Positions 5,780 to 60,043 of a DNA stretch of 64,000 bases are shown here, piece by piece. The stretch is from Octopus vulgaris (lineage: Eukaryota). The stretch is taken from the NCBI GenBank assembly GCA_951406725.2, contig OX597818.1, positions 125,984,001-126,048,000 on the forward strand, written 5' to 3'. Position 1 is the stretch's first letter. Each line of letters starts with the position of its first letter. The notes under the pieces are model-generated. The model was not told the DNA's origin and made no database searches. It was given only the letters and a program-made list of their open reading frames with translations. Both the position numbers and the translations under genes were made by a program.

Positions 5780-7063
5780 TCAGGTCATTCTATAAGTTTT
5801 GTCTGATTTTACCTTTTTTAAAATTGAATGAAATTTAATAATATTTCAGAATATCTAATATAATGAAAAATTATTTTTATGCATTTGTGTACATTTAAAC
5901 TAATCAAATATTATTTTACAGAATAATAGAATTAAAATTTCTTTGATTAAAACCCTTTCTAACATGGGAGTATCTAAAGAGAATTTGAGGCACATAATAC
6001 TTTATGAGTACAAAAACAAGAAACTCTGCAACCGAAGCGACTCGAAACACACTCAGTTTATGGGAAAGAATGCTTGAATGAAAGAACTTGCAGAAGATGG
6101 TTTCCAAAATTCAGAAGTGGAGATTTCAGCATTTAAGATGAAGACGAACAGGACGTCCAGTTGAGTTTGATGATAAGCTCCTTGAGGCATTACATGAAGT
6201 AAATCCTGCATTATCAGTTGAAGAATTGGCAATAAAGCTTAGTTCAAACCATACAACTGTTCATCATCATCTTCAAAAAAACTTGGAAAGGTTCCTAAAC
6301 TTGGAAAATAGGTGCCTCATGAATTGTCCGAAAGCAACAGCAAATCCCGAGTTGACATCTGCTATTCTTTCCATTCTCACAAACTCATTTCACCCTTTTT
6401 GAATAGACTTGTGACTGGTGACGAAAGATGGATGTTCTATCAAAATGTTAAACATCGTAAACAGTGGCTTGGTGAAAGGGAAAAGCTCAACCACAACCGA
6501 GAAAGGAACTTCATAGGAAAAAGGTTCTTCTCTCCATCTAGTGGGATTGCAAAGGAGCAATTCACTTTGAATTGTTACCACCTAATGCAACAATCAATGC
6601 TCAAGTCTACTGTCAGCAATTAGAGGGTTTGAACCAAACTTTGAAGAAGAAAAAACGCTTTATTGAATCGAAAAGAGTGATCTTTCATCAGGACAATGCG
6701 CGACCCCGCACTGCGAAGATCAGATCACAGAAGATCGAAGAGCTTTGTTGGGAAAAAATGCTTCATCCACCTTATTCTCTCAACCTTGTTCCTTCAGTCT
6801 ACCATTTGTTTCGTAGTTTACAGAATCATTTGGGGGACATAACTTTCGCAAGCCAGGAGGAGGTCGAAACTGATATTTCAGAGTTCTTCGCCTTGAAACC
6901 AAAAGAGTTTTACATTGATAGGATTAAAAAGCTTGAAAATAAATAGAAGGAAGTCATAAATAATTAGGGCAAGTACATTGATGATTAAATGTCAATTAAA
7001 TATAACATTTGATCACTTGTTTTCTTTATTCAAAATTCAGACAGAACTTATGGGATGAAATGA
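5780..7063 (+). mobile_element. Full-length decayed mariner (Tc1/mariner) DNA transposon
   Basis: Imperfect TIRs CAGGTCATTCTATAAGTTTTGTCTGA and TCAGACAGAACTTATGGGATGAAATG; ~1.28 kb; transposase remnants inside. Confidence 0.9.
5964..6988 (+). pseudogene. Mariner transposase pseudogene with stops and frameshifts
   Basis: Motifs VPHEL, LVTGDERW, HQDNARP and HPPYSLNLVPSVYHLF are spread over different frames. Confidence 0.9.
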
Positions 7064-11765: not shown

Positions 11766-11837
11766 GATCATTACAGATACAGCGTAAAGAATTATTGATT
11801 TAATAAATTGATAAATAGTAGTTTTCGGTATGGAAAA

Positions 11838-12250
11838 GAATCATATTCGGTAAAAACTTATACAAAAAGTTTTTTTTTTATATATAATTATAACAATAAT
11901 TAAGCGTTTAGCAACAAGTTGCTTCACCACATACCGAAAATTTTGAAATAGCAGCCAAAAGAATATTATGTTGACAAAGGAAATGAATTTTTATAATTCT
12001 AATCCATAAACGCCTCCATAATTAATCGAAGACTGTTTAATTTCATTCTGTTTCTTCTTTTTACCTATGTGAGTTACAACTATTGTTATCTGTGGAGACA
12101 TATTTTGTAGAAAAAAGAAATAGCGGTCTTTTGGCTGCTATTTGTAAATTTTCGGTATGTGGTGAAGCAACTTGTTGCTAAACGCTTAATTATTGTTATA
12201 ATTATATATATAAAAAACTTTAAATTTTTTTATCGAATATGATTCTTTGT
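11838..12250. repeat. Imperfect inverted repeat, ~125-bp arms
   Basis: 11838-11963 is the reverse complement of ~12128-12250 and includes AAATAGCAGCCAAAA. Confidence 0.8.
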
Positions 12251-12439
12251 TGCTAAACCCTCATATATATATATATATATATAAAATAAATATAAGAGAG
12301 TGGTCACTATATTAATCACTCTAGCACCAGTTAATCCAAAAGGTTTCAACCACGAAGATACATGTTTCCCATGAAAGCCAGTACGACTGTTAGCTCACAC
12401 GGACAGGGCAAATAAAAAATAACAAAAATACAGATTATT

Positions 12440-12515
12440 TTGGGACAATTGTTTCGCTATTAATGAATTAAATGTAACATTACTTACAATAATCCATTTG
12501 TAGCTCTTCAGCCAA
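12440..12515 (-). ncRNA. Type I hammerhead ribozyme, 533-bp unit
   Basis: Reverse complement of the motif at 14733-14808. Confidence 0.88.
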
Positions 12516-12972
12516 GACTATCTGGATGAAATCCACTCAATCACACGCCAGATTTTACCATAACGATAAATACGCGTGCGGTTCAATTGATTACATCGGA
12601 CGTTATAATTCAAATGCCCCAACCAACAGCGCGCCAAACTCACACGGAAAACAAATACAGCATTTAGAAATAAATGCAGCATAATTATAATTAATTAATA
12701 AGGGTGAGAGAATTAGATACTAATTTAATAGTATATTTATTCCACACCAAGTGGCCTAGTGCTACGAGAAACCTGGATTATTATAATATTTTATAACATA
12801 TTATAATATTTTCACAAAATAAATATAAGAGAGTGGTCACTATATTAATCACTCTAGCACCAGTTAATCCAAAAGGTTTCAACCACGAAGATACATGTTT
12901 CCCATGAAAGCCAGTACGACTGTTAGCTCACACGGACAGGGCAAATAAAAAATAACAAAAATACAGATTATT

Positions 12973-13048
12973 TTGGGACAATTGTTTCGCTATTAATGAA
13001 TTAAATGTAACATTACTTACAATAATCCATTTGTAGCTCTTCAGCCAA
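12973..13048 (-). ncRNA. Type I hammerhead ribozyme, 533-bp unit
   Basis: Same motif, +533. Confidence 0.88.
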
Positions 13049-13505
13049 GACTATCTGGATGAAATCCACTCAATCACACGCCAGATTTTACCATAACGAT
13101 AAATACGCGTGCGGTTCAATTGATTACATCGGACGTTATAATTCAAATGCCCCAACCAACAGCGCGCCAAACTCACACGGAAAACAAATACAGCATTTAG
13201 AAATAAATGCAGCATAATTATAATTAATTAATAAGGGTGAGAGAATTAGATACTAATTTAATAGTATATTTATTCCACACCAAGTGGCCTAGTGCTACGA
13301 GAAACCTGGATTATTATAATATTTTATAACATATTATAATATTTTCACAAAATAAATATAAGAGAGTGGTCACTATATTAATCACTCTAGCACCAGTTAA
13401 TCCAAAAGGTTTCAACCACGAAGATACATGTTTCCCATGAAAGCCAGTACGACTGTTAGCTCACACGGACAGGGCAAATAAAAAATAACAAAAATACAGA
13501 TTATT

Positions 13506-13581
13506 TTGGGACAATTGTTTCGCTATTAATGAATTAAATGTAACATTACTTACAATAATCCATTTGTAGCTCTTCAGCCAA
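13506..13581 (-). ncRNA. Type I hammerhead ribozyme, 533-bp unit
   Basis: Same motif, +533. Confidence 0.88.
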
Positions 13582-14038
13582 GACTATCTGGATGAAATCC
13601 ACTCAATCACACGCCAGATTTTACCATAACGATAAATACGCGTGCGGTTCAATTGATTACATCGGACGTTATAATTCAAATGCCCCAACCAACAGCGCGC
13701 CAAACTCACACGGAAAACAAATACAGCATTTAGAAATAAATGTAGCATAATTATAATTAATTAATAAGGGTGAGAGAATTAGATACTAATTTAATAGTAT
13801 ATTTATTCCACACCAAGTGGCCTAGTGCTACGAGAAACCTGGATTATTATAATATTTTATAACATATTATAATATTTTCACAAAATAAATATAAGAGAGT
13901 GGTCACTATATTAATCACTCTAGCACCAGTTAATCCAAAAGGTTTCAACCACGAAGATACATGTTTCCCATGAAAGCCAGTACGACTGTTAGCTCACACG
14001 GACAGGGCAAATAAAAAATAACAAAAATACAGATTATT

Positions 14039-14114
14039 TTGGGACAATTGTTTCGCTATTAATGAATTAAATGTAACATTACTTACAATAATCCATTTGT
14101 AGCTCTTCAGCCAA
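14039..14114 (-). ncRNA. Type I hammerhead ribozyme, 533-bp unit
   Basis: Same motif, +533. Confidence 0.88.
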
Positions 14115-14732
14115 GACTATCTGGATGAAATCCACTCAATCACACGCCAGATTTTACCATAACGATAAATACGCGTGCGGTTCAATTGATTACATCGGAC
14201 GTTATAATTCAAATGCCCCAACCAACAGCGCGCCAAACTCACACGGAAAACAAATACAGCATTTAGAAATAAATGCAGCATAATTATAATTAATTAATAA
14301 GGGTGAGAGAATTAGATACTAATTTAATAGTATATTTATTCCACACCAAGTGGCCTAGTGCTACGAGAAACCTGGATTATTATAATATTTTATAACATAT
14401 TATAATATTTTCACAAAATAAATATAAGAGAGTGGTCACTATATTAATCACTCTAGCACCAGTTAATCCAAAAGGTTTCAACCACGAAGATACATGTTTC
14501 CCATGAAAGCCAGTACGACTGTTAGCTCACACGGACAGGGCAAATAAAAAATAACAAAAATACAGATTATTTATTTATTTCTAAATGCTGTATTTGTTTT
14601 CCGTGTGAGTTTGGCGCGCTGTTGGTTGGGGCATTTGAATTATAACGTCCGATGTAATCAATTGAACCGCACGCGTATTTATCGTTATGGTAAAATCTGG
14701 CGTGTGATTGAGTGGATTTCATCCAGATAGTC

Positions 14733-14808
14733 TTGGCTGAAGAGCTACAAATGGATTATTGTAAGTAATGTTACATTTAATTCATTAATAGCGAAACAAT
14801 TGTCCCAA
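14733..14808 (+). ncRNA. Type I hammerhead ribozyme, 533-bp unit
   Basis: TTGG-CTGAAGA-GCTA...TAGC-GAAA-CAATTG-TC^CCAA. Stem I extends via CAGAT/ATCTG; stem II extends via AATGGATTA/TAATTCATT and TGTAA/TTACA; palindromic stem III ACAATTGT; GUC cleavage after 14804. Confidence 0.9.
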
Positions 14809-15265
14809 AATAATCTGTATTTTTGTTATTTTTTATTTGCCCTGTCCGTGTGAGCTAACAGTCGTACTGGCTTTCATGGGAAACATGTATCTTCGTGGTT
14901 GAAACCTTTTGGATTAACTGGTGCTAGAGTGATTAATATAGTGACCACTCTCTTATATTTATTTTGTGAAAATATTATAATATGTTATAAAATATTATAA
15001 TAATCCAGGTTTCTCGTAGCACTAGGCCACTTGGTGTGGAATAAATATACTATTAAATTAGTATCTAATTCTCTCACCCTTATTAATTAATTATAATTAT
15101 GCTGCATTTATTTCTAAATGCTGTATTTGTTTTCCGTGTGAGTTTGGCGCGCTGTTGGTTGGGGCATTTGAATTATAACGTCCGATGTAATCAATTGAAC
15201 CGCACGCGTATTTATCGTTATGGTAAAATCTGGCGTGTGATTGAGTGGATTTCATCCAGATAGTC

Positions 15266-15341
15266 TTGGCTGAAGAGCTACAAATGGATTATTGTAAGTA
15301 ATGTTACATTTAATTCATTAATAGCGAAACAATTGTCCCAA
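15266..15341 (+). ncRNA. Type I hammerhead ribozyme, 533-bp unit
   Basis: Same motif, +533. Confidence 0.88.
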
Positions 15342-15799
15342 AATAATCTGTATTTTTGTTATTTTTTATTTGCCCTGTCCGTGTGAGCTAACAGTCGTAC
15401 TGGCTTTCATGGGAAACATGTATTTTTCGTGGTTGAAACCTTTTGGATTAACTGGTGCTAGAGTGATTAATATAGTGACCACTCTCTTATATTTATTTTG
15501 TGAAAATATTATAATATGTTATAAAATATTATAATAATCCAGGTTTCTCGTAGCACTAGGCCACTTGGTGTGGAATAAATATACTATTAAATTAGTATCT
15601 AATTCTCTCACCCTTATTAATTAATTATAATTATGCTGCATTTATTTCTAAATGCTGTATTTGTTTTCCGTGTGAGTTTGGCGCGCTGTTGGTTGGGGCA
15701 TTTGAATTATAACGTCCGATGTAATCAATTGAACCGCACGCGTATTTATCGTTATGGTAAAATCTGGCGTGTGATTGAGTGGATTTCATCCAGATAGTC

Positions 15800-15875
15800 T
15801 TGGCTGAAGAGCTACAAATGGATTATTGTAAGTAATGTTACATTTAATTCATTAATAGCGAAACAATTGTCCCAA
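15800..15875 (+). ncRNA. Type I hammerhead ribozyme, 533-bp unit
   Basis: Same motif, +534 (1-nt insertion near 15424). Confidence 0.88.
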
Positions 15876-16152
15876 AATAATCTGTATTTTTGTTATTTTT
15901 TATTTGCCCTGTCCGTGTGAGCTAACAGTCGTACTGGCTTTCATGGGAAACATGTATGGTTGAAACCTTTTGGATTAACTGGTGCTAGAGTGATTAATAT
16001 AGTGACCACTCTCTTATATTTATTTTGTGAAAATATTATAATATGTTATAAAATATTATAATAATCCAGGTTTCTCGTAGCACTAGGCCACTTGGTGTGG
16101 AATAAATATACTATTAAATTAGTATCTAATTCTCTCACCCTTATTAATTAAT

Positions 16153-16248
<96 letters not shown>

Positions 16249-34508: not shown

Positions 34509-36783
34509 AAACAACAACAACAACAAAAACAACAACAACAACAACAAGAACAAGAAGAAGAAGAAGAAGAAGAAGAAGAAGAAGAACAACAACAACAACA
34601 ACAACACGAACAACAACAAGAACAACAACAACAAGAACAAGAACAACAAGAACAACAAGAACAACAACAAGAATTAACAACTAGAACAACAACAACAACA
34701 AGAACAACAACAACAACAAGAACAAGAACAACAACAAGAACAAGAACAACAAGAACAAGAACAAGAGCAAGAAGAAGAAGAAGAACAACAACAACAACAA
34801 CAACACGAACAACAACAAGAACAACAACAACAAGAACAAGAACAACAAGAACAACAAGAACAACAACAAGAATTAACAACTAGAACAAGAACAACAACAA
34901 GAACAGCAAGACCAACAAGAACAACAACAAAAACAACAACAACAGCAACAACAAGAACAACAACAACAACAAGAAAAAGAATAATAATAATAATAATAAC
35001 AACAACAACAACAACAACAACAAAAAACAGTAAGAACAACAACAAGAACAACAACAAGAACAACAACAAGAACAACGACAACAACATTAACTACAAGAAC
35101 AACAACAACAAGAACAAAACAAGAACAAGAACAAGAACAAGAAGAACAACAACAACAAGAACAACAACAACAACCACCAGAACAAGAACAACGACAACAA
35201 CATTAACTACAAGAACAACAAGAACAACAAGAACAACAACAACAACAAGAACAACAACAACAACAAGAACAAGAACAACAACAAAACAACAACAACAACA
35301 ATAAGAAGAACAACAAGAACAAGAACAACAACAGAAACAACAAGAACAAGAACAACAACAACAACAAAAACAAGAACAGCAAGAACAAGAACAAGAACAA
35401 CAACAAAAAGGACAACAACAACAACAAGAACAACAACAAGAACAGCAACAAGAACAACAAGAACAACAAGAACAACAAGAACAACAAGAACAACAACAAG
35501 AATTAACAACTAGAACAAGAACAACAACAAGAACAGCAAGACCAACAAGAACAACAACAAAAACAACAAGAACAAGAACAACAACAACAACAAAAACAAG
35601 AACAGCAAGAACAAGAACAAGAACAACAACAAAAAGGACAACAACAACAACAAGAACAACAACAAGAACAACAACAAGAACAACAACAACAACAAGAACA
35701 ACAAGAACAACAACAACAACAACAAGAACAACAACAAGAACAACAAGAACAACACCAAGAACAACAAGAACAAGAACAACATCAACAACAACAACAACAA
35801 CAAAAACAACAACAGGAAGAACAAGAAGAAGAAGAAGAAGAACAACAACAACAATAAGAACAAGAACAACAACAGCAACAACAACAAGAGCAACAACAAG
35901 AACAAGAAGAAGAAGAAGAACAAGAACAAGTACAAGAACAACAACAACAACAACAAGAACAAGAATAACAACAAGAACAAGAACTACAAGAACAAGAACA
36001 AGGACAAGAACAACAAGAACAAGAACAACAACAACAAGAACAAGAACAACAACAAAAACAACAACAACAACAAAAAGAACAACAACTACAACAACAACAA
36101 GAACTAAAACAACAAGAACAAGAACAAGAACAAGAAGAACAACAACAACAAAAACAACAACAACAAGAACAACAAGAACAACAACAGGAACCACAAGAAC
36201 AACAACAACAACAACAACACCAACAAGAATAACAAGAACAACAAGAAGAACAGCAACAACAACAACAACATAAAGAACAACAACAACAACAACAACAAGA
36301 CCAACAAGAACAACAAAAACAACAACAGCAACAGTAACAAGAACAAGAACAACTACAAGAACAACAACAACAATAAGAGCAAGAACATGAACAAGAAGAA
36401 GAACAACAACAACAAGAACAAGAACAACAACAACAACAACAACAAGTACAAGAACAACAAGAACAACAACAAGAACAACAAGAACAACAAGAATAAGAAG
36501 TAGAACAACAACAAGAACAAAGACAAGAAGAAGAAGAAGAAGAAGAAGAAGAAGAAGAAGAAGAAGAAGAAAAAGAAGAAGAAAAAGAAGAAGAAGAAGA
36601 GGGAGAAGAGGAAGCAGAAGAAGAAGAAGAAGAAAAAGAAGAAGAAGAAGAAGAAGAAGAAAAAAGAAGAAGAAGAAGAAGAAGGAGAAGGAGAAGGAGA
36701 AGAAGAAGAAGAAGATGAAGATGAAGAAGAAGAGAAAGTAGTGGAAGAAGAAGAAGAAGAAGAAGAAGAGAAAGTAGAGGAAG

Positions 36784-36815
<32 letters not shown>

Positions 36816-36853
36816 GAGAAAGTAGAGGAAGAAGAATGAGAAGAAGAAGAAGA
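34509..36853 (+). repeat. 2.3-kb (CAA/GAA)n compound low-complexity repeat
   Basis: Nearly T-free triplet tract grading from CAA-rich to GAA-rich, with a recurring GAATTAACAACTAGAACAA marker. Confidence 0.95.
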
Positions 36854-38760
36854 ATTTTATTTTTCAGTATTAATCATGACATTAGATAGGTAGTCAGAGG
36901 CATATTATTTGAAAGTATACAGGATGTTCGCGGTTGGAGTGCTTTTGATGATAGATCAACTTAATGAGAGCAATATAGCAACAACATCGCTACAACGTAA
37001 TAAATATACAACTGCACATCACATTATGCCATACGTTTGAATTATCATTCACGACTTCCACCAACATCACCCAACAGATCATCATATCAAAGCTCGAAAT
37101 TATATGAAATACAGTTTGTCTTGTTAATTTTTTTTATATATAAACTGAAATAGCAGTAAGTAGGATAAGCAAATAATTTAGTTATTATTAGAATAATGTT
37201 CTACATATTTCAAAATTCTAATTTTCTATTTGTACGTAGGTAAATCCAACACTAGAAACCGAAATATCTCATCTCTCTATGCCCTAAGCACAAGGGGTTT
37301 TTTTTTATGATTAGTCCGGGTCTGGATAGTGAGATGGCGAAATACATCAAGCCAAAAGGTATAGAGATAACCATTAAGGCAGAGGTTTCGTCATTGATTC
37401 TTATGCTGGTGGTGGTGGTGGTGATGGGTGAGGCTGTCTCACAAACAGTATAGGCCCCCAAAGTAAGGCAATGCACTGGGGGATCTTATAAGCACACCCA
37501 TAGCATACCTAAATTATAATTAGGCCTCTTGATCTGCCAGGCTCCAGGACAACTTTCCAGTTTGAGTCCACATCTTGACTGCTTTGGTGGTGAGAATGGA
37601 GAGTGAGGGTCGAAAAGCATGTTATGGTGGTGTATAGAGTGTTGTGCATGAGTTGTTATTGTAATTCAGAATTGTAAGGTACTGTAGAGTCTCTAGTGGT
37701 GTGGTACTCAGTGAATGCATTACGTGCTACCAGTTGGTTTATTGGCGTTGAGAATGATCCGCTGGAATACTTGGGCATTACAAGACTCACGTCGTGTTCT
37801 GTTTTGGTCAGGAGTTGGGATATGAGCTCAGAATGCACAGAGGCGGAATATATTATATAAGATATTCTCTTCGATACCCTAATATTACACAACTCCACGA
37901 CTTTGACTGGCACTTCATTTATCAAGCTTAAAGAAATGAGTGACAAAGTTGACCGAGGCAGAATTTGAACTCAGACTCATATAACCGGAACAAATAAAAC
38001 AAGGCTGTAACGACTCTGCCAAATCAACAAAATGGAACTGATAAGTACGAGAATTAATTAATAGATTAATTTAATCATTTATTTATTTATTTATGCTATT
38101 TTAGCGCTTGGTCAACCCTGTTTGAATAGATCTATCATCCAACGGACCTATATTCCAACAGTGATCATCTCGACATTTTCGTGAGGTAGAGTTGGATACG
38201 GAGAATATAAAACTATATTATCTAATGTATCCTTCCACTTTTTAAAACTATATAGTGGGATTTGGGGTAGGTTAAGCTGCCATTTCTAGCAGACCGAACG
38301 ACATGTATCTACAAGTAAACTGCATATACATGAGGTGCACATGATGCATTTACATAAACCGGAGCACAATGAAAGATCTAGAACGGTTCGTGATAAAGGT
38401 AATTATTTACCCACGGGTACTTCCCTTTGTCTATAACACAAGTTGTATACCCATGTCAGCGAGTTCACCTACCTTTCCTTATCCCTGTTCTGACCCGGTA
38501 ATATGATGTGGTGTTGAATTGCTGCTGTTACGCTCATACACCTTATCACTTCCCTCTAAATAAATTTACATCCCTCAAATTTACGTCCTATTTCATTTGT
38601 CACGACCATCATTATGCACTAACTCGTCACTTGACCTGCTAGAACTAACAGCCAAATTTCTCTAAAATTACACTCCACAGTCTTAGAACAGAACAAAAAA
38701 AATTAAGTAATGTATTGAATAATGTGATGTTAGCTACACGATATCTAAAAAAACAAGTAA

Positions 38761-42780: not shown

Positions 42781-42848
42781 TATATATACACACACACAAT
42801 TATATATAAAAAAATAGAATTTAGATTCATTTGAATTAGGTACTTAAA

Positions 42849-43630
42849 TTGAGGCATCTTGTTTGGACGATATTATTTGCACACTTCAACAATATTAAGT
42901 GAGTATCAAACTCTACATAGAATTCTTTTCCACCCGACATTCATGCAGTGTATGCAGATGGCACGAGCGAACTTAGTGAATAAATCCGCTTTTGTTTGTT
43001 CACTCATGTACTTTATATAAAGATACTTTCCAAATATTTCCAAAGTGCAGATTCCACAGTAGGTGAGTAAAATATTGAGGCATCTTGTTTGGACGATATT
43101 ATTTGCACACTTCAACAATATTAAGTGAGTATCAAACTCTACATAGAATTCTTTTCCACCCGACATTCATGCAGTGTATGCAGATGGCACGAGCGAACTT
43201 AGTGAATAAATCCGCTTTTGTTTGTTCACTCATGTACTTTATATAAAGATACTTTCCAAATATTTCCAAAGTGCAGATTCCACAGTAGGTGAGTAAAATA
43301 TAAATGACTCGCAAAAATCTATAAGTGTAAATTCATTACGGCGTTTCGAGTGACTCCGTTAATTTATCAATGAAAGCATTACATCATTACAAAGAAAACC
43401 GTTCTCATCAGATGAACCGCATAGACCTCAAGCATAATAGACAAGTTAGATATTTAAACATATTCATATCATCAATAGAGAACAAATATTTACAATGATT
43501 TCGCTCTCTAAATTTTTGGGGCTATCTATTGATGATATAAATACGTTTAAATATGTAACATGTCCTTTATGTTTGCGGTCTATGTGGTTCATCTGATGAG
43601 AACGGTTTTCTTTGTAATGATGTAATGATT
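42849..43630. mobile_element. PLE-type insertion: ~227-bp tandem duplication, an HHR and an inverted repeat
   Basis: TTGAGGCATCTTG... occurs at 42849 and 43075; 43377-43490 is inverted at ~43515-43630. Confidence 0.65.
43332..43416 (-). ncRNA. Type I hammerhead ribozyme
   Basis: Minus strand TTCAT-CTGATGA-GA...TC-GAAA-C(GCC)G-TA^ATGAA; 5-bp stem I, canonical core, short stem II base. Confidence 0.7.
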
Positions 43631-44528: not shown

Positions 44529-44699
<171 letters not shown>

Positions 44700-44795
44700 A
44701 TAAAACGGTAAGATAACAAAAGAAAGAAAGGGACCTCAATATTATGTAAATAGAGGAAATTTATCTATACAATATGTTACATTACTCGGTAGTCA

Positions 44796-44858
44796 AGATA
44801 AAACTCTGAGTTTCAGATGCCGAAGTGGAAATCCACAACACCATCTCTTCGGTTATCT
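44796..44858 (-). ncRNA. Hammerhead ribozyme, inverted copy in the PLE 3' region
   Basis: Reverse complement of 47712-47774. Confidence 0.78.
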
Positions 44859-45721
44859 GGCTATTTGAAAACGTTATGAAAAAATACCGTTAAAAATGAA
44901 GGGAAATTACTCTGTTATAACTCTGCTTGCCTGCGTACTTATACATCGCTCGCATTTTTCGTCATAAAAATTATATAAAAATACATAAAAATATATAAAA
45001 ATATATAAAAATATATAAAATCTTCTTGGGACATAACACAGAAAGCATGTTCTATCCGTTTTCTTTAGGGGACCAAAAACGTAACAGAAATTTAGTCACA
45101 TGTGGGCATGATCCGAAAAGCTCTGTCCTTGTATTTAGACATGTGGTAGGGTCTAAGCTGCTTTTCCAGATAAGCCATCTCTCCATGTCGCATAAACCGC
45201 ACCTTCCGCTGCCGTTAGTGTAGGGCTTACATCTGGCCAAAATCTTCCATTGTATGTTATAATCGACACCTTTATCTCTTAAAGACCAAATATGATTGGA
45301 TAATTGTGTCGCTTTTCTTTTGTTCCAGTGCCTAAAGCTCAAAGTGTGGTTATTGAACCTGGCCTTGAAATTACCCTCTGTCAGGCCCACGTATTTCTTC
45401 GTCGAAACGGTGTCTTTAGTGGTTATAGAGTTTACGGTAGCTTCATATATGATGGTCTTGGACATGCAAGCTCCATTTAGCGGGCACAATTCTTTATTCC
45501 TGCATGAACAGCTATTTTCTTCTTGTGTTTTTTGTATGTTATGATTGATTATGTTTTTAAAATTGGTAGTTGAACTAAAACTAATTTTTAAATTGTGTCT
45601 ATTGAAGAGTTTCCTATAAGCATGGTTAACTGGAAAATGTCTATCTATCAGTGCTAGGAAATATTTACCTATATTGAAGGCCACCTCGGGTGAGTAAGGG
45701 GGCGTAAAACCGAAAAAAGCA

Positions 45722-47518
45722 CTTTTTTCGGATAAAACCAAGAACTTATACCTGGTAGATAACAGCAAATACACACAACTCTTACACAACAGCATCACTA
45801 ATAATTATACTAAGGCTAGGGCACAGACATATAACGAAATTAATAAAGAAGCTAGCGTCATCGCCGCTAAACTTAAATTAGATAAAAAAATAGAAACCCT
45901 CCCCCAAAAAGAGGCCTTTATTACTATTAAAGATCACAAAGAAAACTTCCTTTCCAACCCTAAATGTAGGCTTATCAACCCAGCCAAGTCAGAACTAGGG
46001 ATTATTAGCAAAGAAATTTTAGATAAAATAAATACGAAAATTAAGACCGATACTAGGCTAGTGCAATGGTCCAATAGTATAGAAGTCGTAGACTGGTTTA
46101 AAGCTATTAAGAATAAGAAAAAAGCGAGGTTTACACAATTCGATATTGTTGATTTTTATGCCTCTATCTCTAAAGAACTGCTAGATAAAGCCCTAATCTT
46201 CGCTAGTGACTTCATAGAAATTAGTACCAATGATAAGGATATAATCTTCCATGCTAGAAAGACATTACTTTTCAGTGAGAATGCAAAGTGGGTAAAAAAC
46301 ACCGACACGGAGGGCGCTTTCGATGTGAGCATGGGTTCATATGATGGGGCAGGCATCTGTGATCTAATTGGACTCTTTCTCCTAGATACCTTCGGTAAGA
46401 CATTCCCTAACGTACATTTCGCCATCTACAAAGATGATGCCCTCGCCTTAACAGCTAATACAAATGGACCAGCACAAGATCGTTTTAGGAAGGATATTAT
46501 CCAGTTAATGAAACACTTCGGACTTAGTATAACTATAGACACTAACCTGACGGTTGTCAATTTCTTAGACGTTTCCTTAGATCTTAATAATAATATTTAT
46601 AAGCCTTATAGGAAACCCAATGATAGACTAAGTTATATTAATGTAGGTTCATGCCATCCCCCTATAGTATCCAAAAATTTAGTTAAAAATATTAGTAAGA
46701 GGATTTCTAGCCTCTCATCTAATGAGGACATCTTCAATAGCGTTGCCCCAGTTTATAATAAAGCTTTAAAAGATAGTGGTTTTAGCGAAAAAATAAAATA
46801 TACACCTATCACCAGCCCAACAGTAAGGAAAAGGAATAATAGAAATAGGAAGGTCATCTGGTTTACGCCCCCTTACTCACCCGAGGTGGCCTTCAATATA
46901 GGTAAATATTTCCTAGCACTGATAGATAGACATTTTCCAGTTAACCATGCTTATAGGAAACTCTTCAATAGACACAATTTAAAAATTAGTTTTAGTTCAA
47001 CTACCAATTTTAAAAACATAATCAATCATAACATACAAAAAACACAAGAAGAAAATAGCTGTTCATGCAGGAATAAAGAATTGTGCCCGCTAAATGGAGC
47101 TTGCATGTCCAAGACCATCATATATGAAGCTACCGTAAACTCTATAACCACTAAAGACACCGTTTCGACGAAGAAATACGTGGGCCTGACAGAGGGTAAT
47201 TTCAAGGCCAGGTTCAATAACCACACTTTGAGCTTTAGGCACTGGAACAAAAGAAAAGCGACACAATTATCCAATCATATTTGGTCTTTAAGAGATAAAG
47301 GTGTCGATTATAACATACAATGGAAGATTTTGGCCAGATGTAAGCCCTACACTAACGGCAGCGGAAGGTGCGGTTTATGCGACATGGAGAGATGGCTTAT
47401 CTGGAAAAGCAGCTTAGACCCTACCACATGTCTAAATACAAGGACAGAGCTTTTCGGATCATGCCCACATGTGACTAAATTTCTGTTACGTTTTTGGTCC
47501 CCTAAAGAAAACGGATAG
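45722..47518 (+). CDS. PLE reverse transcriptase plus C-terminal GIY-YIG endonuclease (5'-truncated open frame, no true start)
   Basis: The frame is open upstream of the tracked 46061 start: SDKT, AFITIKDHK, CRLINPAKS, FDIVDFY, SMGS, YKDD, FLDV, CSC-x5-C-x5-C, IIY...YVG, RFNNH, CGLC. Confidence 0.9.
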   Translation, partial: LFSDKTKNLYLVDNSKYTQLLHNSITNNYTKARAQTYNEINKEASVIAAKLKLDKKIETLPQKEAFITIKDHKENFLSNPKCRLINPAKSELGIISKEILDKINTKIKTDTRLVQWSNSIEVVDWFKAIKNKKKARFTQFDIVDFYASISKELLDKALIFASDFIEISTNDKDIIFHARKTLLFSENAKWVKNTDTEGAFDVSMGSYDGAGICDLIGLFLLDTFGKTFPNVHFAIYKDDALALTANTNGPAQDRFRKDIIQLMKHFGLSITIDTNLTVVNFLDVSLDLNNNIYKPYRKPNDRLSYINVGSCHPPIVSKNLVKNISKRISSLSSNEDIFNSVAPVYNKALKDSGFSEKIKYTPITSPTVRKRNNRNRKVIWFTPPYSPEVAFNIGKYFLALIDRHFPVNHAYRKLFNRHNLKISFSSTTNFKNIINHNIQKTQEENSCSCRNKELCPLNGACMSKTIIYEATVNSITTKDTVSTKKYVGLTEGNFKARFNNHTLSFRHWNKRKATQLSNHIWSLRDKGVDYNIQWKILARCKPYTNGSGRCGLCDMERWLIWKSSLDPTTCLNTRTELFGSCPHVTKFLLRFWSPKENG

Positions 47519-47711
47519 AACATGCTTTCTGTGTTATGTCCCAAGAAGATTTTATATATTTTTATATATTTTTATATATTTTTATGTATTTTTATATAAT
47601 TTTTATGACGAAAAATGCGAGCGATGTATAAGTACGCAGGCAAGCAGAGTTATAACAGAGTAATTTCCCTTCATTTTTAACGGTATTTTTTCATAACGTT
47701 TTCAAATAGCC

Positions 47712-47774
47712 AGATAACCGAAGAGATGGTGTTGTGGATTTCCACTTCGGCATCTGAAACTCAGAGTTTTATCT
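47712..47774 (+). ncRNA. Type I hammerhead ribozyme in the PLE 3' terminal region (CCGAAGA core variant)
   Basis: AGATAA-CCGAAGA-GATG...CATC-t-GAAA-CTC(A)GAG-TT^TTATCT. Confidence 0.78.
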
Positions 47775-47796
47775 TGACTACCGAGTAATGTAACAT

Positions 47797-47847
<51 letters not shown>

Positions 47848-58681: not shown

Positions 58682-58713
<32 letters not shown>

Positions 58714-58900
58714 TATATAAAAGGGCTTAGTAAAATAAATTACTTTGCCGCATACTGAACTCATTAGAAATAGCAGCCAAAAAACTTTTTTAAAGCTATT
58801 TCTAATACTTAAAGAAAATCTCTCTCATATATAGCGTTTGCTTAATTCAACTCACAAAAGTTTGGGGGTAAGGACATTAAAAAATCAAATGCTAAGGTTA

Positions 58901-58956
58901 TTTGAGAACGTACGTTTCAAGATTAGTCAAAACAACACTTCTATCTTCAGCTCAAA
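58901..58956 (-). ncRNA. Type I hammerhead ribozyme, 545-bp unit
   Basis: Reverse complement of 59643-59698. Confidence 0.82.
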
Positions 58957-59642
58957 AACTCCTTGGTTTGGATTTGGAAACACTGAAAGTAAGAACATAC
59001 CCTTTCGAAGATCCGCTCGTAACTAACAGTGCCAACAAACCCAAATAAGCAAGCGAAGAATTTCTGTTCTCCCCTTTCCACCAGCGTGGGTTAAAATCAT
59101 CAAACGCTATGCTTATTTCGGTAAAATCCGAAGCATTAACGTACGTTCTCAAATAACCTTAGCATTTGATTTTTTAATGTCCTTACCCCCAAACTTTTGT
59201 GAGTTGAATTAAGCAAACGCTATATATGAGAGAGATTTTCTTTAAGTATTAGAAATAGCTTTAAAAAAGTTTTTTGGCTGCTATTTCTAATGAGTTCAGT
59301 ATGCGGCAAAGTAATTTATTTTACTAAGCCCTTTTATATAATGTAATAATTTGAATTCGCCTTAAATGGTCCCTTTGCATACTGAACACTTGGTGAAATT
59401 GATTAATAATTAATTAATTTTACCCTCAATTGTTGAAATTATAATTAATCTCCCTCTAATTAATGCTTCGGATTTTACCGAAATAAGCATAGCGTTTGAT
59501 GATTTTAACCCACGCTGGTGGAAAGGGGAGAACAGAAATTCTTCGCTTGCTTATTTGGGTTTGTTGGCACTGTTAGTTACGAGCGGATCTTCGAAAGGGT
59601 ATGTTCTTACTTTCAGTGTTTCCAAATCCAAACCAAGGAGTT

Positions 59643-59698
59643 TTTGAGCTGAAGATAGAAGTGTTGTTTTGACTAATCTTGAAACGTACGTTCTCAAA
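59643..59698 (+). ncRNA. Type I hammerhead ribozyme, 545-bp unit
   Basis: TTTGAG-CTGAAGA-t-AGA...TCT-t-GAAA-CGTACG-TT^CTCAAA; 6-bp stem I, palindromic stem III. Confidence 0.82.
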
Positions 59699-59980
59699 TA
59701 ACCTTAGCCTTTGATTTTTTAATGTCCTTACCCCCAAACTTTTGTGAGTTGAATTAAGCAAACGCTATATATGAGAGAGATTTTCTTTAAGTATTAGAAA
59801 TAGCTTTAAAAAAGTTTTTTGGCTGCTATTTCTAATGAGTTCAGTATGCGGCAAAGTAATTTATTTTACTAAGCCCTTTTATATAATGTAATAATTTGAA
59901 TTCGCCTTAAATGGTCCCTTTGCATACTGAACACTTGGTGAAATTGATTAATAATTAATTAATTTTACCCTCAATTGTTG

Positions 59981-60043
<63 letters not shown>

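Follow-up and report, generated by a model that had tools for sequence, protein, structure and literature searches.

How does a repeat that encodes no protein come to stand in a genome as two opposed runs of units between tracts of (TA)n? We addressed this question in a 64,000-nt stretch of the Octopus vulgaris genome (GCA_951406725.2, contig OX597818.1, positions 125,984,001 to 126,048,000, forward strand; hereafter, the window), in which positions 12283 to 16155 are filled by copies of a 533-bp unit with a hammerhead ribozyme. This array is one insertion of a young, dispersed, non-coding family, a retrozyme without long terminal repeats (non-LTR retrozyme), which is a known kind of element. 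Its most telling feature is a pair of fixed start sites, one per arm, the "tail" signature of Penelope-like elements (PLEs); this feature was absent from the original prediction, which had been made from the letters of the window. We consider it probable that the family is a non-autonomous hammerhead retroelement, mobilized in trans by a PLE reverse transcriptase (RT)-endonuclease and copied from a circular monomer.

The array and its ribozymes

The array comprises 4.30 plus 2.97 units, arranged head-to-head and flanked on both sides by (TA)n. Its parts are listed below, with unit position 1 being the first base past the cleavage site (window position 14805).

12263 to 12282, no strand: left (TA)n target tract
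12283 to 14572, minus strand: inverted arm, 2290 nt (4.30 units); the left edge is the sense 3' end, at unit position 161 (start site A), and the 5' end is at unit position 4
14572 to 14573, no strand: head-to-head (5' to 5') junction of the two presumed cDNA arms, gap 0
14573 to 16155, plus strand: direct arm, 1583 nt (2.97 units), beginning at unit position 302; sense 3' end at about unit position 291 (start site B); 6-nt deletion in the third unit
14805 to 15337, plus strand: cleavage-to-cleavage monomer, 533 nt, 33% G+C; predicted circular RNA with the fold of a branched rod, z −7.7
14925 to 14965, plus strand: hairpin, then a CUUAU/U-rich tract; putative reverse-transcription start site A (about unit position 160)
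14965 to 15095, plus strand: 131-nt tail between the start sites, carrying the CACUUGGUG motif and a hairpin kept in all sister families; ends at start site B (about unit position 291)
16156 to 16240, no strand: right (TA)n target tract

These measurements bear out the claim of about 4.3 and about 3 opposed units with (TA)n flanks and no open reading frame (ORF). The period is 533 and the arms are 98.6 to 99.6% alike; the 533-nt circle holds no ORF, its longest stop-free frames being 58 aa (sense) and 63 aa (antisense). Tandem Repeats Finder did not call the array because its period limit is 500. Folded as a circle, the monomer has a predicted energy of −143.2 kcal/mol, with a z of −7.7 against 40 dinucleotide shuffles and of −4.8 for the opposite strand; the predicted z values were −6.8, −6.2, and −5.0 for units of sister families and −1.7 for an old copy of family B.

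A motif scan of both strands, run without a shuffle control, found seven type I hammerheads in the 64-kb window, every one within the array and one per pass of that part of the unit (7/7):

core 14737 to cleavage after 14804, plus strand: type I hammerhead, stem I spanning about 14730 to 14811
core 15270 to cleavage after 15337, plus strand: type I hammerhead
core 15804 to cleavage after 15871, plus strand: type I hammerhead
core 14110 to cleavage after 14043, minus strand: type I hammerhead
core 13577 to cleavage after 13510, minus strand: type I hammerhead
core 13044 to cleavage after 12977, minus strand: type I hammerhead
core 12511 to cleavage after 12444, minus strand: type I hammerhead

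Each has the CUGAAGA core, a stem II made up of a 4-bp base and a long extension, GAAA, a stem III of 2 bp with the palindromic loop AAUU, and a GUC site, in agreement with the original prediction of seven such ribozymes. Stem I consists of 4 perfect pairs, a C-A mismatch, and 2 further pairs in the window haplotype, and of 7 bp in sister families. Rfam gave no match at gathering scores in the window, nor at E ≤ 10 in 14573 to 15700, so the identification rests on motif and covariation. Among 18 hammerheads from five sister groups, 96.3% of cells were paired and 9 of the 18 pairs had changed on both sides, a score matched by 0 of 500 shuffles, while slid controls fell to 27 to 42% paired; one measure (further pair types) was not above the shuffles, and, the sequences being related, the shuffle counts are not probabilities. 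The core was unvaried across all 18 save at its free position. Moreover, in the predicted consensus fold of nine whole units, 31 of 139 pairs had changed on both sides and stem I closes across the cut. Folding and covariation indicate that the RNA structure of the whole unit, and not of the ribozyme alone, is under selection. Two copies of the unit were predicted to cofold into a double hammerhead, and a dimer logic has been described for hammerheads with a palindromic stem III (PMC4209133).

A genome-wide search, which the original prediction had set as one of its tests, was carried out in 2.80 Gb (227 contigs). The unit yielded 804 candidates, of which the 40 scored hold 215 matches on most large contigs, at 91 to 100% identity among the matches listed; the unit is thus not confined to one locus. 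An exact pattern of the hammerhead core matched 814 times and a two-motif pattern of the conserved tail 3,016 times, with 0 matches for either reversed-pattern control. Copies range from dimers to multimers, with up to about 13 units in one arm. Classical satellite DNA, with long arrays at few loci and ends unrelated to register, was rejected given short arrays on most large contigs and fixed ends, and the claim of a retrozyme rather than an ordinary satellite is supported. A plant LTR retrozyme was likewise rejected: the topology is type I, the G+C content is 33%, and there is no LTR pair, as against type III topology, a primer-binding site, a polypurine tract, a 4-bp target-site duplication, and high G+C content in the plant kind.

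Insertion ends and the Penelope signature

The ends of 63 loci of the window's family (family A) were mapped: the window, the other 39 scored loci (biased to full units), and 23 drawn from the core-pattern list. Sense 3' ends lie at two fixed sites past the cleavage site, A at about 157 to 161 and B at about 288 to 293; these ranges were set by eye, and the end-calling script used wider bins since alignments run into TA. A hairpin and a CUUAU tract precede both sites. The insertion was inverted at 39 of the 63 loci, every time head-to-head. Three of these were cut by a gap or fetch edge, one had an odd end, and 35 had one A and one B end; that is, 35 of 36 complete inverted insertions join unlike ends, with no like-with-like pair (binomial P = 3e−11 for 35/35). 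All 24 single-arm loci also ended at A (14 loci) or B (10 loci). (TA)4 occurred within 40 nt of 94 of 102 3' ends. At the 39 head-to-head junctions, the arms overlapped by 0 to 6 nt in 25 cases and by more in 5, and 1 to 18 extra bases were present in 9. A clear target-site duplication, of 14 nt, was found at 1 of 69 loci (control mean, 0.07); others would be hidden by the TA tracts.

These counts leave an assembly artefact, a collapsed or chimeric inversion, barely credible. The original prediction had named a chimeric assembly as a way in which it could fail, and some arrays are indeed error-rich (L069) or stop at a contig end (L038); nonetheless, 39 inversions with differing junctions follow one end rule, one insertion has a 14-nt target-site duplication, and the unit-to-unit joint is present in contigs of four independent sequencing runs.

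The same layout recurs in related families. Non-coding sister families have units of 505, about 500 to 510, and 493 bp, those measured being 68 to 79% alike. A scan of 35 of their loci yielded 8 inversions that could be classified, and all 8 followed the end rule of the A+B type. Altogether, at least five non-coding sister groups (493 to 545 bp) share the inverted two-end layout, including one with a copy in the window:

58709 to 59988, plus strand: distant 545-bp non-coding hammerhead element, outside the insertion; same inverted layout, with ends at its own unit positions 198 and 296

This 545-bp family had 1,576 pattern matches genome-wide (control, 3) and arrays of up to 13 units. Its hammerhead has a palindromic stem III and a GUU site, and it escaped the strict hammerhead scan because stem II opens with a U-U pair.

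Coding PLEs of the same genome served as comparators. They were found by genome searches with a Hydra-clade protein, two flanking PLE fragments, and a Neptune-like fragment, and one lies in the window:

44698 to 47811, plus strand: coding Hydra-clade PLE, outside the insertion, with RT and GIY-YIG and its own hammerhead; inverted layout with the long end on the inverted arm and the short end on the direct arm

It is a 5'-truncated copy of an active PLE, its inverted 3' copy bears the tail, and its two ends lie about 70 nt apart. Its motifs (RWK, DKT, CxCx5C, CxxC, and CxH) are those of the Hydra clade in the set of PMC8557442; its assignment to the Naiads was therefore rejected. The Hydra-like family has intact 717-aa frames, a 2,589-bp unit, and a hammerhead with a CCGAAGA core. 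A long end was paired with a short end in 7 of 7 of its loci with both outer ends in view (30 loci fetched) and in 3 of 3 loci of a family with a 775-aa frame, labeled Neptune-like from its motifs. In vitro work in PMC11167929 shows that two RT start sites bound the PLE tail and that the protein, a predicted dimer, nicks and extends both strands; the tail has been reported as present at one end (PMC8557442; PMC3846280). Since coding PLEs of this genome share the two-end rule and the PLE tail is by that account the stretch between two RT starts, we are highly confident that the family is moved by PLE machinery through an RNA.

A further explanation is that the unit is an ordinary satellite or the solo pseudo-LTR (pLTR) of a coding PLE, derived from truncated insertions, expanded as DNA, and not itself mobile. 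We give it very little credence: in the loci examined, the units join up with themselves and carry no trace of an ORF, the arms run from the fixed ends through several whole units, the sister groups are likewise non-coding with the same layout, and the whole unit folds and covaries (31/139 pairs). What speaks for it is that PLE pLTRs carry such hammerheads (PMC4209133), that Xenopus retrozymes match pLTRs (bioRxiv 10.64898/2026.07.22.740005), and that the coding PLE families of this genome were examined in part. The original prediction had also asked after attachment to a coding PLE. In the fetched loci the unit was never attached to an RT-endonuclease ORF, and tblastn with the Hydra-clade protein returned unrelated neighboring fragments only.

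The template of each insertion

Haplotypes were compared at 73 loci (the 63 mapped loci plus 10 from the tail-pattern list) on the basis of substitutions alone. Indels and all sites up to 3 nt away from one were disregarded, as were the ends of pieces, any piece shorter than 60 nt, and the pieces of L069 that are rich in errors. Among allele-by-locus cases, 280 were fixed in every covering piece, 86 were confined to a single unit, and 13 were partial. Alleles seen at least twice occurred in both arms in 153 cases and in one arm in 4, and six private alleles were fixed across both arms. Sixty-four loci held 36 haplotypes. The window haplotype, with four changes from the majority, is continuous through both arms and is common only to L036. 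It is thus likely that one template was copied per insertion, which fits rolling-circle copying of one circle. Ends and haplotypes together support the original claim of a single insertion of multimeric cDNA from a unit-length RNA.

The other ends of the arms were scattered. The 5' ends (n = 101) were compatible with a uniform distribution round the unit (Kolmogorov-Smirnov P = 0.28), no part of the circle being avoided, and did not pile up at the cleavage site, with 5 of 101 within 15 nt versus 5.7 expected. Cleavage junctions with intact anchors were free of indels and of the same length in 294 of 294 cases. Arms longer than one unit made up 71 of 96, reaching 11.6 units, and both arms were so in 18 of the 39 inversions. 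The median arm length was 1.9 units in the young family A versus 0.7 in the more diverged family C, which disfavors slow growth in place. The two arm lengths were weakly anti-correlated (rho = −0.38, P = 0.026, n = 35), probably from the way in which loci were picked. A circle copied several times from two starts would explain the arm lengths, the homogeneity, the scattered 5' ends, and the scar-free junctions, and a circular monomer is, in our judgment, the likely template. Rolling-circle copying has been proposed, without test, for such elements (PMC7229834; PMC7761336).

The following steps would account for these features. First, an array would be transcribed on the hammerhead strand, a choice of strand that the A>G pattern described below supports. 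Second, by analogy with known retrozymes, the hammerheads, probably acting as dimers through the palindromic stem III, would cut the transcript to 533-nt monomers, and a host ligase would close them. Third, a PLE protein, probably a dimer, would bind the two-hairpin region and nick both (TA)n strands, one cDNA starting from A (about 160) and one from B (about 291); each arm is seen to have one of the two fixed ends, and from these we infer the enzyme. Fourth, both polymerases would travel the same way round one circle with strand displacement, each covering 0.1 to 12 units and stopping anywhere, as the observed arm lengths, homogeneity, and scattered 5' ends suggest for a presumed circle. To our knowledge, PLE RTs lack RNase H. 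Fifth, the two cDNA 3' ends would anneal by 0 to 6 nt of microhomology and be filled in, a presumed repair that would leave the head-to-head junctions seen; where a single cDNA survives, a single-arm array between TA tracts would result.

Two alternatives concern the template. In one, insertion is PLE-driven, but the template is an uncleaved linear multimer (or two transcripts of one locus, one per subunit), arrays are homogenized and lengthened later by unequal crossing-over and gene conversion, and the hammerhead rarely cuts or acts at another step. This also predicts exact junctions and no 5' pile-up; mosaics among adjacent and scattered units show that DNA-level turnover occurs, and the vertebrate preprint favors local amplification from pLTRs (bioRxiv 10.64898/2026.07.22.740005). 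However, linear copying can only shorten arrays and should hand on mosaics, whereas at 64 loci nearly all of the 36 haplotypes are fixed within the locus, copies less than 2% diverged have private alleles fixed in both of their inverted arms, and the longer arrays belong to the younger family. Classical twin priming on one linear RNA would place the 5' end of the B arm next to site A, yet only three B arms of the similarity-picked set stop at 149 to 152. Hammerhead stems are, moreover, kept by compensatory change across families 68 to 79% alike. We therefore consider this alternative unlikely.

In the other, the RT copies hammerhead-cleaved linear monomers end to end by template jumping, with no covalent circle. 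A few 5' ends do lie at unit positions 1 to 14, that of the window's left arm included (5/101 versus 2.8 expected, P = 0.16). Nevertheless, we regard template jumping as very unlikely: 294 of 294 junctions lack an indel, no haplotype switch occurs at the cleavage site even though dozens of haplotypes coexist, and an RT that jumped back to the molecule it had just copied would in practice be following a circle.

Several points weigh against a PLE-mobilized circle, and we gather them here. As to the loci, 40 of those mapped were chosen for containing a full unit, which inflates the arm lengths. At unit positions 86 to 87, the three direct-arm units of the window (region of 14891, 15424, and 15957) show three states, namely, C, T plus an extra T, and a 6-nt deletion. 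In some partial cases adjacent units share a private change (L051, L055, and L059), pointing to some local duplication or conversion, and scattered mosaics across non-adjacent units are unexplained (L148, L139, L136, L126, and L138): 247C is found in 4 of 12 units of L148 (2005 to 9154), and a U-to-C change in the core in 7 of 10 units of L139, across both arms. The 13 partial cases may reflect conversion, local duplication, dimer templates, or consensus errors. One active source locus per germ cell would equally give both arms the same haplotype. The hammerhead is still foldable within the predicted circle, which would need protection from self-cleavage for that reason. As to the enzyme, an anole PLE needs no hammerhead cleavage in vitro, unprocessed RNA being its main substrate, and the PLE tested there used its start sites without a strand difference (PMC11167929); in addition, 1 of 9 Xenopus retrozyme dimers cleaved in vitro (bioRxiv 10.64898/2026.07.22.740005). 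As to a partner, blastn (word size 7) gave no significant match of the unit to the pLTR regions of three intact coding PLE families, with frames of 717, 899, and 775 aa, and an old, decayed fourth. The genome holds many more PLEs (38,589 first-look candidates), and Naiads lie outside this comparison. When the pLTR regions were set beside the units of families A, B, C, E, and F, matches were no better than AT-rich noise; the single strong one (L177) was on the opposite strand, in a flank. That the window's coding element shares pLTR motifs with the unit was also rejected, the common words not being significant.

Candidate editing, related elements, and implications

One position of the unit varies in a way that may reflect RNA editing:

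14883, plus strand: unit position A79, inside a long duplex; candidate A-to-I site

It reads G in 955.5 of 992 (96%) and 49.9 of 52.9 (94%) of the depth in two RNA-like runs, from separate studies and on different haplotypes; the runs are contigs guessed to be RNA, none on record as such, without matched DNA, and strand, ends, and level are not readable from them. In run X15, G at 14883 accounted for 2,848 of 1.12 million. Run X1 also has 6 to 14% G at 14858, 14866, 14889, and 14916, sites that are never G in genomic units (277 to 312 units). At genomic A79, 26 of 302 units have G; these units all belong to 5 of the 73 loci, which represent four haplotype backgrounds, and there G is fixed or occupies 10 of 11 units. 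A54, A79, and A85 lie in the long duplex of the predicted fold. These data hint that the hammerhead strand undergoes A-to-I editing and that the edits are at times written into DNA. Unit site 50 likewise recurs on three backgrounds, which tempers this hint, and private fixed alleles show no A>G excess (1/8). If mature RNA is edited at A79 to about 95%, G at only 5 of 73 loci would mean that most templates were unedited and so were not the bulk steady-state RNA of those runs, a further point against the favored mechanism. The contigs of all four runs show a joint going back 533 nt, which a tandem array would give as well. The genome holds no exact copy of a loose-end motif of run X1, and one contig of a run labeled as another organism (X20) spans the whole unit with 16 differences.

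Other hammerheads and PLEs were noted along the way. Just left of the array, 11835 to 12248 holds a 128-bp inverted repeat (90%) and a short motif common with the 545-bp family, which 2275 to 2398 of the window matches at 79%. Unrelated type I hammerheads lie in the flanks of other loci (L065:1036-1651, L120:439-540, L052:5957-6066, L062:4732-4821, L137:3461-3571, L044:5965-6066, and L116:3661-3764), most ending in (TA)n, and that of L065 is an inverted pair with one short and one long end; many unrelated hammerhead families seem to be present in the genome. L120 and L121 (G000:C1:205.7 and 206.4 Mb) are near-identical in opposite orientation, flanks included, and represent a segmental or assembly duplication. 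L198 (G000:C3:5.856 Mb) holds a very young Neptune-like PLE with the 775-aa frame, a period of about 4,270 bp, and at least 150 copies identical over 77 aa; a long frame lies upstream, and a motif resembling a hammerhead has a CCGAAGA core. L178 and L188 (G000:C3:111.17 Mb) represent a second active Hydra-like family, with an 899-aa frame, a long Asn/Ser-rich insert ahead of the endonuclease, a tandem period of about 3,624 bp, and its own hammerhead. Pfam gave no match for two Hydra-like proteins, and a protein homologue search returned 523 relatives without informative names. Elsewhere in the window lie a degenerate 2.3-kb array of (AAC)n followed by (AAG)n that contains long open frames (34510 to 36854), a perfect two-copy tandem duplication of 226 bp (42848 to 43301), and a mariner-type transposase fragment (6542 to 6943; Pfam Transposase_1); of the 20 window ORFs compared with Pfam, none was recognized as a host gene.

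The hammerhead repeats pDo500 of cave crickets, with a unit of about 500 bp, newt satellite 2, and schistosome SMalpha, whose transcripts process themselves, resemble the octopus family, for which self-cleavage is predicted; they are described as satellites, whereas here the arrays are short and dispersed, with retrotransposition ends. Closer are the metazoan non-LTR retrozymes of coral, the mussel Mytilus, and axolotl (PMC7229834; PMC7761336), which are also non-coding tandem units, each with a type I hammerhead, a G+C content under 45%, a 2-bp stem III with a tetraloop, and a stable predicted circle, and for which a PLE or a long interspersed nuclear element (LINE) is proposed to copy the circle into tandem cDNA. 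There, however, circles are shown and integration is hypothetical, while here the circle is predicted and the integration footprint is explicit: two fixed starts, head-to-head inversion, and (TA)n. The main text of PMC7229834 contains neither the word "inverted" nor the word "cephalopod". Vertebrate retrozymes, treated as pLTR derivatives in bioRxiv 10.64898/2026.07.22.740005 (31 vertebrates, 3 insects, 1 anthozoan, and no mollusc), likewise have a PLE link and mostly fewer than 8 repeats; their units of 51 to 972 bp make 533 bp ordinary, contrary to the original prediction of an unusually large unit. The link there is by co-occurrence and pLTR homology, with local amplification proposed, and here by a shared insertion signature, with no pLTR homologue among the four families compared.

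Hydra and Neptune PLEs (PMC8557442; PMC3846280; PMC11167929) show partial tandems, an inverted 5'-truncated copy, a tail at one end only, (TA)n targets, and a hammerhead upstream of two RT starts; the retrozyme differs in having no ORF and in that both its arms are multimeric. Its tail is 131 nt, compared to 30 to 40 nt in the PLE papers and, in the same genome, about 70 nt in Hydra-like and about 30 nt in Neptune-like elements. The (TA)n preference of the retrozyme (94/102 3' ends) is reported for Hydra, Naiad, and Neptune PLEs, and Hydra-1_Obim is listed for Octopus bimaculoides (PMC8557442). Non-autonomous Chlamys PLEs such as MRC1 (PMC8557442) are also non-coding and are inserted in trans by a PLE as several copies, head to tail, but they mostly lack a hammerhead and resemble the 3' end of their partner, whereas the retrozyme has a conserved hammerhead and no partner match so far. 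In a search for octopus and cephalopod retrozymes, Penelope elements, and hammerheads, PMC8557442 was found to list Naiad and Hydra elements for cephalopods and no retrozymes. No report of the footprint was found under rolling-circle, tail, editing, and satellite topics, with the supplements of PMC7229834 and of the preprint and Repbase entries outside this scope. What is new is thus the insertion footprint, a strict two-start, one-per-arm PLE signature combined with locus-wide homogeneity, a pattern predicted by the rolling-circle model.

How animal retrozymes return into the genome (PMC7229834) and what the PLE hammerhead does (PMC8557442) are posed as open questions. We tentatively suggest, as a possibility rather than the expected outcome, that every inverted insertion preserves what one PLE dimer made when its two RTs ran round the same RNA circle, each from its own start marked by a hairpin and each strictly on its own target strand; that the circle is recognized by structure and not by pLTR homology; and that A-to-I edits are written back across the whole array. 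Thousands of young copies have footprints that can be read, the genome also encodes several intact candidate enzymes, and the substrate, at 533 nt, is short enough for assays in vitro, so that rolling-circle copying and the rule of one start per strand can be tested directly. The editing data also suggest how edits made in RNA could come to be inherited within a repeat. If the suggestion is true and coding PLEs behave likewise, their tandems, pseudo-LTRs, tails, and inversions would all stem from a hammerhead-made circular template, which would be the long-sought role of the PLE hammerhead.

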